Assembly: GCA_036785375.1 (NCBI GenBank) | Contig: JAWMAR010000160.1 | Span: forward strand, 5,022,001 to 5,086,000 | Length of the DNA stretch: 64,000 bases | Source of the DNA: Leucoraja ocellata | Lineage: Eukaryota | Direction: 5' to 3' | Shown: positions 2,238-64,000 of the stretch, one piece after another | How the letters are laid out: each line of letters begins with the position of its first letter | How positions within the stretch are numbered: the first letter of the stretch is position 1 | The notes under the pieces: model-generated | The model's database searches: none | What the model was told of the DNA's origin: nothing | The model's input: the letters and a program-made list of their open reading frames with translations, nothing else | Made by a program: the position numbers and the translations under genes

Positions 2238-5200
2238 CTGAAACACAAGAGTTGGACTGTTCAGACTCGGGCAATTCATGTTTTGTTAAAGCAGAGGCAG
2301 GCTCTGTTACAATTATTACTGAGTTAGGGTCCCACAGATAACTGGCCACACGGCTCATGGTCTACGGTGGAAACAGCAGCAGCCAACTACCCTCCCACAC
2401 ACACAGCAAGATCCCCCACAACACTCTGCATTTCATTACATGTTGGCCATTAAACCAAGCAACTCTCACGCTTTCCAAAGTTACATTTGATCTTTTACAT
2501 TTAGACTGGAAAAAAGGCAAAAGGGGGTTTGACTTTTGCAAATAATCCACAAACAGCCCCCCCCGACATGTAGTGTCCAAGCCGCTGAGAGGATTCTCCC
2601 GATGCCGGAGTACCATCACCCGGCGAGAACGGACTGGAACATCGGGCCTCCGTAGCGGAAACTGCGGAGGCCTCAATAGGCCCGACTATGGGTGGACATG
2701 GGATGGGACTGGACTTTGTGCCTTCCCTCATAATGGAAACCATTGTGGGGGGATGTTTTTTATGTTAAAGTTCTTTATTATTGTCATGTTTGTATTCTTT
2801 TTTATGTGCTGCATGGCAACAAGCATTTCACTACACCTAGGTGTATGTCACTAATAAAGAACCCTTTGAACCTTTGACACTGCAGCACTCCCTCACCATT
2901 GCACTGACGTGTCAGTCTGGATTGGAATTAACCCACACACAAACTACAGCCCTGAGCCACAGCTGAAACTTCAGTGGCATCCTCCATGCTGAGAGCAAGG
3001 ACATTAATCTAGTCAGGTTTACTATGGCAGTGGACTGAGGAAGCAGGCTCTCTCACACGCGAGCTTGTATCAGCTTACCGACTTCTGTAGCACAGCTCAC
3101 CAGCCAACGAACCATCTCCCTTCGACGCCAATTCATGGTGGACAATGTCATCCTCATGACCTGCAGAGCAAACACATTCAGTCAAACCCAGCACCAACAC
3201 GTATGCAGTAATGACAAACAGGGTTTCTATTCAACTTGACACAACTGTGCCTTCTTATGTGAAGCACAATAACTAGGGTTTGTACAAGCACCACTCCTCA
3301 CCAAGGGACATCTTCTGCACCTGGCCAGCCCTGTAACTATTTTGCAAATTTCATTCCTCTGAACACCAAAGGCAGGCCTCTTAAGCAAATAGTCTGAGAT
3401 TTTTATCCCACTCCCTCTATGGCACGTATATCCTTTAGGAAGAGTGACCAAAACCCAACCCAATAGTCCTGATGTGGAATAATCAATTTTGTAACTTATA
3501 AATACAGTAAAACTTAATGTTGCAGAATCAGTCCTAATTATGCAGCATGGAAACAGGCCTGGACAAATATGCCAACTCAAAATGTCACCAATCCATGCTC
3601 TCCAGAGTTACTGCCTGTCCCGCTGAGTTACTCCAGCACTCTGTGAAACATCACCTATCCATGTTCTCCACAGATGCTGCCTGACCCGCTGAGTTACTCC
3701 AGCACTGTGTGAAATGTCACCTATCCATGTTCTCCACAGATGCTGCCTGACCCGCTGAGTTACTCCAGCATTGTGTCTATCTCAGATTCCCATCTAACTG
3801 TACACTGCGCCCCACAGAGGTTCCTACCTGTAGCCCAAGCTCCAGAGAGACGTTGAGCAGAGTGATGTCAGGTGCACAGTTGGGGGGTGTGGCTGTCTTG
3901 CAAGCATCCTGAGCCAGCTTGTAAATGAGGGATGGAGAATGGATGTTCTGTTGAATGGATTCCAACACCACTCGCAGCCACTTCGGGTCTCCTGCAACAA
4001 TGGGAGGAACCAATCGATTGATCAAACCACAAGTGTCGAAGTAGCTCGTTGCACAGACTCAAGCCCATAGATTTTTCACCCAGTGCTTCACATCTGTAGC
4101 ATTTCATACATGGCCTGATGAAACCACTTGCTTAGACAGTCGGGCCGACTAATCTGTGCCAACCCAGCTGCCCAAATCCTGCATTTGTATAGACCATATA
4201 TGTTTGCTCCTTGCACATGTATCTATCCAAATGCTTGACTATACTCTCATTTAACACCTCTTACTGTGGTCTCAACTTCACATGAATAATTGAAGCCTAA
4301 CCGAGGGGAAAAACGTACTTTTAAGTTTAATATACTCACAGGATATGGCTGGTGCCGAAAAGCAAGAATTCTTGCCATTTTGAATATCCACCCCCAAGCA
4401 GATTTGTTATGCTAATCCATGGAATTAAGAAAATGGCATTGGCATATAACCTACCTAAATATCTTCATTTACTTGCCAGAAACAAGGGTTTTTAAACAAT
4501 TTGAATCTCCAAAAAGTGAGATTTGAAATGGAGTAACTGGATGAAAAGTACAGGGCAATTTGCATCTTATCCACTTTGCCACCATGACCTTAAATTTCAA
4601 GTGCAGTTTATTGTCACATGTACCAGTTAAGGTGCAGTGAAATGGGAGTTAAAGATGGATTCTAAAAACCAGATGCTATGACAAACTTTACAATAATTCA
4701 TCACCAAATGCAATGGTGGAAGTGATTGAGCAGGCGGAATTGACTCCATGTGTTCCAATACTGCAGGATAATCAGAAGCACAACACTTAGACTACAACAT
4801 GGAGACAGTCTCACGGCCACACCCTCCTGATGCAGGAAGACATCAACCTAGAGGAAGGTGCCAGACCACGTCCAAAACTAGAATGGATTTAGCTGAAGTT
4901 ACATTAGAAGACCATGAAGAGCCTTCCTTCCACAGTTCTCTACAATACAGAACGGGGCAAGGTGAGAATACTGATTTAGACACACACCCATTTTCCCAAA
5001 ATATTAATCCAAAACTCCCGCAATGCACCTTAGCATTAAAAGCAGATGCTCAACCCTTCAATCATGCTATTAGTTTAAACCACTCCGTAAGAGATTTAAA
5101 TTAAAGGAAAACTTTATATATTGGCTTCCAAAACTGGAATAGGAAAATGGCACGAACAGAGTGAATGTGGAACAACGATGACATCACAGCTTTCTCTGCA

Positions 5201-63290: not shown

Positions 63291-64000
63291 AAGAGGGAAG
63301 GAGCAGTTTCAAGTGCGGCTTACCCTGGAGAAAAAGTCAAACTGCTCAAAGAAGTTAATGGGCCAGGTAGCATCTGTGGAGACAAAGGAATGGGTGATAT
63401 TTCGGGTTGACACCCTGAATCAGGACCATGGTGTTAAACGTTACTTACTGACATCAGCAGTCAAGCATCTTGTTGGCAGGCTTGTAATAGAAAATCAAAA
63501 GAGAGTGGAAATCTAAAATGCAAACAGAAAATGTTGGAAATATTCAGCAGATCAGGCCACGTCTCCGAGAAAAGAAACAGCATTAATGTTTCAGGTTGAA
63601 CCTTCACAGAACAAGTCAAAGCCTTTGACAAGTGGAGGAGGAAAAATTGACAAGAGCAAAGATATCCACCAGCTAGTGGCTAAGGCAGCCTAACACCATG
63701 CGGCATCAAAAGGGAACTCATAGTTTGGAACTTTGGCTGCTAACTTATGATGTTCTATGGTACAGCCTGTTTTTATTAAATTAATATGATTCTGTGCACC
63801 ATTTCAGCTTAGCACAGATTTTCACCCATATATATTCTAACTTTCCCATTTTTCCCATGCAATTTGTCACTTCTACATCCAAACTGTGCTGAGAACCAAC
63901 CAAGATTTCATTAAACCTCGTCTGCTGTTCTTTGTTTCTCCAAGATTTCATTAGCTTTCCTGATTGTTTGTTCTACCATTTAATGAGGGGAACGTGGACA

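Follow-up and report, generated by a model that had tools for sequence, protein, structure and literature searches.

Terminal-repeat stubs of a hammerhead-bearing Penelope element in Leucoraja ocellata and the likely origin of their end points

A short repeat that recurs through the 64-kb stretch of Leucoraja ocellata DNA analysed here (the window) is almost certainly the 3' terminal repeat (pLTR) of a young Penelope element, which is probably of the Neptune type and still active. Its short copies, referred to as stubs, probably arose when insertion by the protein of this element was aborted, and are unlikely to be a mini-element family in their own right. As a ribozyme family it is ordinary, since the terminal repeats of Penelope elements have been known to contain minimal hammerheads since 2014; the informative part is the end points of the copies rather than the ribozyme motif. 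The value of the family lies in the very large natural record that it holds of how Penelope starts and ends reverse transcription, rebuilds its terminal repeats and uses its hammerhead. Exact predictions for assays can be drawn from this young family, in which the frames are near-intact, the copies have one sharp 5' point and two 3' points, and the stagger is 14 bp.

The repeat family in the window and in the genome

A profile built from eight window copies, which match it by construction, detected 32 arms at E<1e-3 in 24 loci when the window was searched (Table 1); these include seven pairs in head-to-head arrangement and a single tandem with a 66-bp unit. The profile recovered all 21 places (21/21) at which the initial annotation had listed a recurrent short family, as well as loci at 39889, 49951 and 63523, and it found no arms in five block shuffles of the window and one match, with E 0.34, in the reversed window, confirming the recurrence. 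The 28-nt consensus proposed in that annotation has one exact occurrence in the window (34434-34461). A sample of 1 Mb, taken as 100 stretches of 10 kb on long contigs, contained 534 arms in 363 loci together with 45 strict cores, and none in the reversed controls. Extrapolated to 3.44 Gb, these counts give ~1.2 million loci, of cores ~150,000. Two variants of the motif have 22,899 and 16,420 exact copies genome-wide, with 0 in reversed controls. The family had also been called dense in the window; it is there, but by the 363 loci of the 1-Mb sample its density in the window is simply the genome average.

The suggestion that the copies are non-coding and mostly intronic holds, most of them being flanked by exons of a ZSWIM4-8-family host gene. 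Other frames that resemble exons, at 14708, 27343, 28116, 29101 and 56940, presumably belong to this gene, whose likeness we take to be to ZSWIM5/6. Upstream of its 5'-most exon found, 62362-62681 is a tandem repeat with a 93-bp unit and many CCAAT-like and GC-box-like words. The window also holds a second dispersed repeat (8456-8529, 13072-13155, 31144-31255, 43063-43171 and 63021-63103) and a third (41983-42061, 47311-47389 and 55590-55668), both of which we assume, from their look, to be pieces of elasmobranch SINEs. The tandem at 3575..3787 has an identical junction at three loci elsewhere (L155, L156 and L089), and its 66-bp unit is a dispersed minisatellite derivative of the 3' half of the pLTR.

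Table 1. Copies of the terminal repeat in the window, with the host gene. Positions are those of the window; TSD, target-site duplication.
Feature	Position	Strand	Remarks
Host gene, ZSWIM4-8 family	1379..57218	-	Pfam PF21055, E 1e-55, at 1379-1945
Three 66-bp tandem units, pLTR 3' half (from GAAA)	3575..3787	+	Without CUGA half, not a ribozyme
Head-to-head pair	6587..6807	.	Tail on left arm only; broken cores
Head-to-head pair without cores	15991..16138	.	Tail on left arm; 16-bp TSD with one mismatch (15977-, 16124-)
Single arm	16322..16429	-	G16.2>A
Single arm	21155..21258	-	Changes at G10.1 and C11.1
Single arm	23150..23249	-	Changes at C3 and C11.1
Old arm with tail	23529..23767	-	Includes ~125 nt of upstream 3' UTR-like sequence
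3' fragment, no core	26113..26168	+	97% to young subfamily
Head-to-head pair, 3' fragments, no core	27239..27351	.	Right arm E 0.0024
Decayed arm	28712..28795	+	
Single short pLTR copy, no tail	34432..34524	+	Sole intact minimal hammerhead core, 34434-34461; predicted cut after 34461; starts with G two bases ahead of core; TSD 34412-34425 / 34525-34537, 13-14 bp, one indel
Decayed arm	39729..39821	-	
Decayed arm	39889..39988	-	Absent from initial annotation
Single arm	42206..42311	-	Core changed at three positions
Head-to-head pair	45824..45958	.	G8>U; no tail seen
Head-to-head pair	46401..46591	.	Joined via two helix I bases, which lengthens helix I; tail on left arm; G12>A in core
Decayed arm	48185..48251	-	
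Single arm	48920..49022	-	C15.2>A
Core-only fragment, broken	49951..49987	-	Absent from initial annotation
Head-to-head pair	56783..57000	.	Two broken cores; tail on right arm
Old arm and ~190 nt pyrimidine-rich 3' UTR	59114..59426	+	
Head-to-head pair	61253..61403	.	Tail on right arm; 11-bp TSD with one mismatch
Decayed arm	63309..63416	-	
Decayed arm	63523..63604	-	Absent from initial annotation

Penelope protein fragments were not found inside the window by tblastn. Loci fetched with the window copies, by contrast, carry GIY-YIG fragments just 5' of the motif and on the same strand, and the stretch from GIY-YIG to hammerhead is colinear in 15/15 loci retrieved with it; a reverse transcriptase (RT) piece taken from one such locus returned 58,712 first-look candidates. 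Among 20 long RT-bearing copies, chosen for their long open frames and for the most part 95-99% alike, the motif follows the RT/GIY-YIG reading frame on its 3' side in 18, which bears out the Penelope origin proposed at the outset. An element with RT, GIY-YIG and a matching terminal repeat, as the initial annotation had proposed to look for, was found as a partial tandem (L053) with direct repeats of 1.4 kb at 98.6%, and L059 is built likewise; in partial tandems the repeat stands before the frame as well as after it. L053:1447-4995 is a stop-free frame of 1183 codons, with a frameshift close to its end, that encodes in order a proline-rich spacer, a DKG motif, the RT core, a CX4CxxC linker and GIY-YIG; in L055 the end of the frame is intact, and a single frame with RT and C-terminal GIY-YIG is present in L053, L054, L055 and others. 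Pfam matches were below the curated cut-offs for both domains (RVT_1 2e-6 in L053; GIY-YIG 0.08 and 6e-4). The element protein has 800 homologues at E<=1e-30, the closest named one being from bamboo shark (69%). The proline-rich spacer takes up ~300 residues before the RT region, and homologues typically have 800-950 aa, the L053 frame being longer.

The Neptune features that we looked for, the CX2-5CxxC linker before GIY-YIG and the CCHH motif, are both present. We assume Neptune rather than Nematis from the host range. The linker is alike in the two (PMC8557442). Inverted arms, that is, an inverted 5'-truncated copy, occur in L054, L063, L064 and L070. At least three older types of 3' UTR have this terminal repeat in common, and relatives of the UTR at 59114..59426 sit 3' of GIY-YIG fragments at four loci (L015, L018, L021 and L099). 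The young element also forms head-to-tail arrays, repeating every ~3.98 kb (G000:C1:8664495-8672502; L305/L306), which are candidate sources of multimeric RNA.

Anatomy and decay of the hammerhead motif

Offsets are counted from the first C of the CUGA box (0), which places the predicted cut between +27 and +28. Judged by its sequence, the motif matches the published minimal PLE hammerhead type as PMC4209133 describes it, with the core boxes, a base inserted after A9, G10.1-C11.1, a palindromic 15.2-16.2 (ACGU) and a short helix I; against this description, the hammerhead core with a palindromic ACGU helix III that had been noted at first stands. A scan of the window with the Rfam hammerhead models, likewise proposed in the initial annotation, gave no match up to E 10 and only weak miRNA-type hits on fold-backs, and the hammerhead call therefore rests on the published description of minimal hammerheads and not on Rfam.

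All 15 core positions are intact in 1 of the 26 window arms scored, and several window loci have no core or only its 3' half. In 211 sampled cores, helix II consists of four pairs and helix I of two, which are kept in 159/211 and 160/211 (a third pair in 31/211); pairing changes between subfamilies are one-sided, from U-A to U-G, and damage falls mostly at CpG sites, as neutral decay would give. The picture of ribozyme motifs seeded through introns is thus overstated, given that nearly all cores are broken. The youngest subfamily (L053:5302-5329; 22,899 genomic copies) has GUU as its cleavage triplet, a UUCG loop, and U-G wobbles in both helix I and helix II, and older subfamilies have a GUC triplet and U-A pairs.

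Folding of the monomer gave no hammerhead fold, and in the nearest-neighbour model the active dimer has -6.5 kcal/mol as against -21 kcal/mol for the best two-strand fold, which counts against dimer cleavage. Dimer cleavage of such motifs was reportedly described by Lunse et al. in 2017. Minimal hammerheads of this type cleave weakly as dimers (PMC4209133), and the hammerhead of the anole element cleaves only with the element's protein (PMC11167929). At 46470-46560, the sequence across the head-to-head junction folds in the shape of a hammerhead whose helix I is long (z -9.7), but its core carries G12>A; similar junctions elsewhere could yield stable monomer helices I.

Copy ends and the origin of the stubs

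The ends were read from 90 young copies, all on contig C1 (30, and 60 of the other 70 listed). Half of these copies (45/90) start at -5 to 0, most often at the G two bases before the first C, while only five of the 90 start between -15 and -92. The 45 consist of 42 called by script and three re-classed by their target-site duplications, two of these three being duplicates; exactly two matching bases precede the core in 21 of the 42. The 3' ends cluster at ~+93 and ~+128, and the 35 nt between the two points are the start of the next tandem unit (the tail). Target duplications measure 6-18 bp overall with a mode near 14 bp, 6-16 bp at single stubs and 13-18 bp in 17/19 young head-to-head pairs; automatic calls on old window copies are mostly unreliable. 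The arms end unequally, and the inverted junctions vary between loci. In 18 of the 19 young pairs the tail is on exactly one arm, the nineteenth reaching the tail position with a failed score. The same holds for 49/57 sampled pairs (none in 6, both in 2; p 3e-8 against one half), and among the seven window pairs the one-arm tail is clear in five, doubtful in one and missing in one. A classification by shared flanks has a high background (81/241) and was used only qualitatively.

We suggest the following course of events for aborted insertion. The endonuclease would nick both target strands ~14 bp apart, and RT would start inside the RNA at one of two points, using one point per strand if both nicks are used. 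On an uncut RNA with its 5' end at the TCAGT before the hammerhead, RT would run off after 95-130 nt and the stub would be inserted. Two run-off cDNAs could be joined head to head by microhomology, and the templates of long tandems would be RNA multimers or circles, a circular RNA intermediate having been proposed for PLEs (PMC4209133). The hammerhead would act in the element's own RNA only, as a dimer and probably aided by protein, with the genomic stubs decaying neutrally. In the anole element, there are two internal RT starts with the tail between them, both strands are extended, and the RT substrate in vitro is uncut RNA (PMC11167929). A footprint of the cut site at copy starts was considered and rejected; 2/534 arms in the 1-Mb sample start there, much as at neighbouring positions, which is in line with uncut RNA as the substrate, although rare starts at the cut may occur.

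With moderate confidence, we attribute the sharp 5' ends to RT run-off at the 5' end of uncut RNA just ahead of the hammerhead. The initiator-like TCAGT ahead of the motif is kept in all subfamilies, and in Drosophila the pLTR of Penelope contains an internal promoter of the initiator type (PMC2377424). Counting against run-off, the modal start is G, one base past the A expected as initiator +1, and the 42 young copies show no G excess from cap copying at the stub start (base at the expected cap position: A18, T9, G8, C7). We found no full-length copy starting cleanly at -2, and a jump, multimeric RNA or a circle must therefore be added to run-off.

The Penelope origin would equally be kept if RT stopped at a boundary in the template formed by a helix, a protein or the pyrimidine tract, most strongly soon after initiation, a reading that we consider rather unlikely. 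The 5' end does fall at the outer edge of the two-pair helix I, the pyrimidine tract lies upstream of the motif in every subfamily, and the RT of PLEs is sister to telomerase RT. Telomerase RT uses template boundaries. At this edge, however, RT would already have crossed the whole folded motif, and long copies mostly read through on a second pass. Thirty loci include the ORF start: 16 run on into an upstream copy (15 of them independent), eight begin at +40 to +125, five near-identical ones (L311-L315) begin at -5 and represent one event, and one is unassigned. Of 16 independent long copies, 15 thus read through and one stops at the front edge, as against 45/90 young copies (Fisher p 8e-4; with L311-L315 counted singly, the stops are 5/21 and the contrast is weak), which argues against an obligatory structural block.

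Stubs could instead form a non-autonomous SINE-like family with an internal promoter, re-inserted in trans by the Penelope protein, which among these readings comes nearest to that of the initial annotation. The fixed start with its initiator-like motif, the two fixed ends and the 66-bp tandem with one junction at several loci would suit such a family, as would the internal promoter known from Drosophila Penelope (PMC2377424) and the ability of pLTRs to act in trans in rotifers (PMC3846280). The variants point the other way: the two commonest are shared by long and short copies (17 long and 13 short; 17 and 8), which favours abortive products of an autonomous element. The locus-to-locus variation of the inverted junctions and the loss of the TCA part of the initiator from most young stubs also speak against a SINE-like family, and we regard it as unlikely, although short copies predominate in one variant (11, as against 2 long ones) and some stubs may therefore have been re-copied in trans.

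For the head-to-head forms, self-priming on antisense RNA (PMC3846280) is an alternative, but by itself it predicts no tail confined to one arm. That the stubs are DNA-transposon MITEs or tandem retrozymes, to which the initial annotation had likened them, is highly improbable in spite of seven palindromic-looking window loci and one tandem array, since the fixed short target duplications of a MITE were looked for and variable ones near 14 bp found, arms are unequal, junctions vary, the link to the RT frame is direct, and there are no tandem units each with a hammerhead, the sole array lacking the CUGA half of the core.

Further candidates were rejected. The junction at 46501, taken as a footprint of the cut site, is explained by helix I microhomology. 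A 3' splice acceptor (pyrimidine tract plus CAG; compare the Drosophila intron that ends at helix I) was dismissed because the stubs have no common upstream exon and are joined directly to target DNA, and a downstream promoter element overlapping the core fits poorly in spacing.

Extending the run-off reading, we put forward, as a speculative proposal, that two classes of template are in use: uncut linear RNA beginning at the front edge of the hammerhead would give the ~1 million stubs as 'strong-stop' products, dimer-cut and circularised RNA would let RT pass that point and give the long tandems, and each nick would have its own RT start. If so, the dimer requirement of the hammerhead would decide whether copying is abortive or productive. 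As a further point against an RNA start at this edge, no pile-up of starts or ends at the motif is seen in three raw RNA runs from a related species, which are poly(A)-based and ill suited to the purpose, and 81-97% of the RNA reads continue into unlike flanks, as for copies within host transcripts. Two single-cell RNA data sets of a related species (X22 and X23) show a 3-5-fold bias to one strand on the terminal repeat and 3' UTR (L053:1150-1485).

Comparison with known systems

The motif shares with the minimal type I hammerheads of metazoan PLEs (Cervera and De la Pena 2014, PMC4209133) the core boxes, the inserted base, G10.1-C11.1 and the helices, as well as the location in the pLTR and the occurrence mostly as single dispersed copies and opposite-strand pairs. 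It differs in that helix II here has only 4 bp with a 4-base loop and that the young subfamily has GUU and not GUC. Exact cores number at least 39,000 here, compared with ~4,000 in coelacanth and 9,000 in Xenopus as counted there by another method. The fixed 5' start at the motif is not described in the accessible text of that paper, and we found no published account of it in a search that covered mainly openly accessible papers.

With the EN+ PLEs Neptune and Nematis (Craig et al. 2021, PMC8557442; Arkhipova et al. 2013, PMC3846280), the element has in common the RT, the CX2-5CxxC linker and a GIY-YIG with CCHH, partial tandems with an inverted 5'-truncated copy, a tail of 30-40 bp at one end and short target duplications. 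Here, in contrast, the frame is longer (~1160-1200 aa) by way of the proline-rich spacer, and stubs that consist of the pLTR alone and share one start point make up about half of the insertions. The green anole element PAc, of the Poseidon clade (Frangieh et al. 2024, PMC11167929), likewise has two 3' end points that define the tail and uses both strands, and its inserts, like those here, fit uncut RNA; its ORF starts within the hammerhead, however, whereas here 163 nt separate the first C of the core from the first Met downstream, and by its linker motif it belongs to another clade.

Non-LTR retrozymes, for which an origin in PLE pLTRs has been proposed, are similarly short and non-coding with a type I hammerhead (PMC7229834; bioRxiv 10.64898/2026.07.22.740005), but they are defined by tandem units that each contain a complete hammerhead, whereas copies in the window occur singly or head to head. 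For axolotl, a copy number of up to 120,000 appears in a section title of PMC7229834; the copy number here is high, not unmatched. By the features tested, the family belongs to the EN+ Penelope-like elements that carry a minimal hammerhead.
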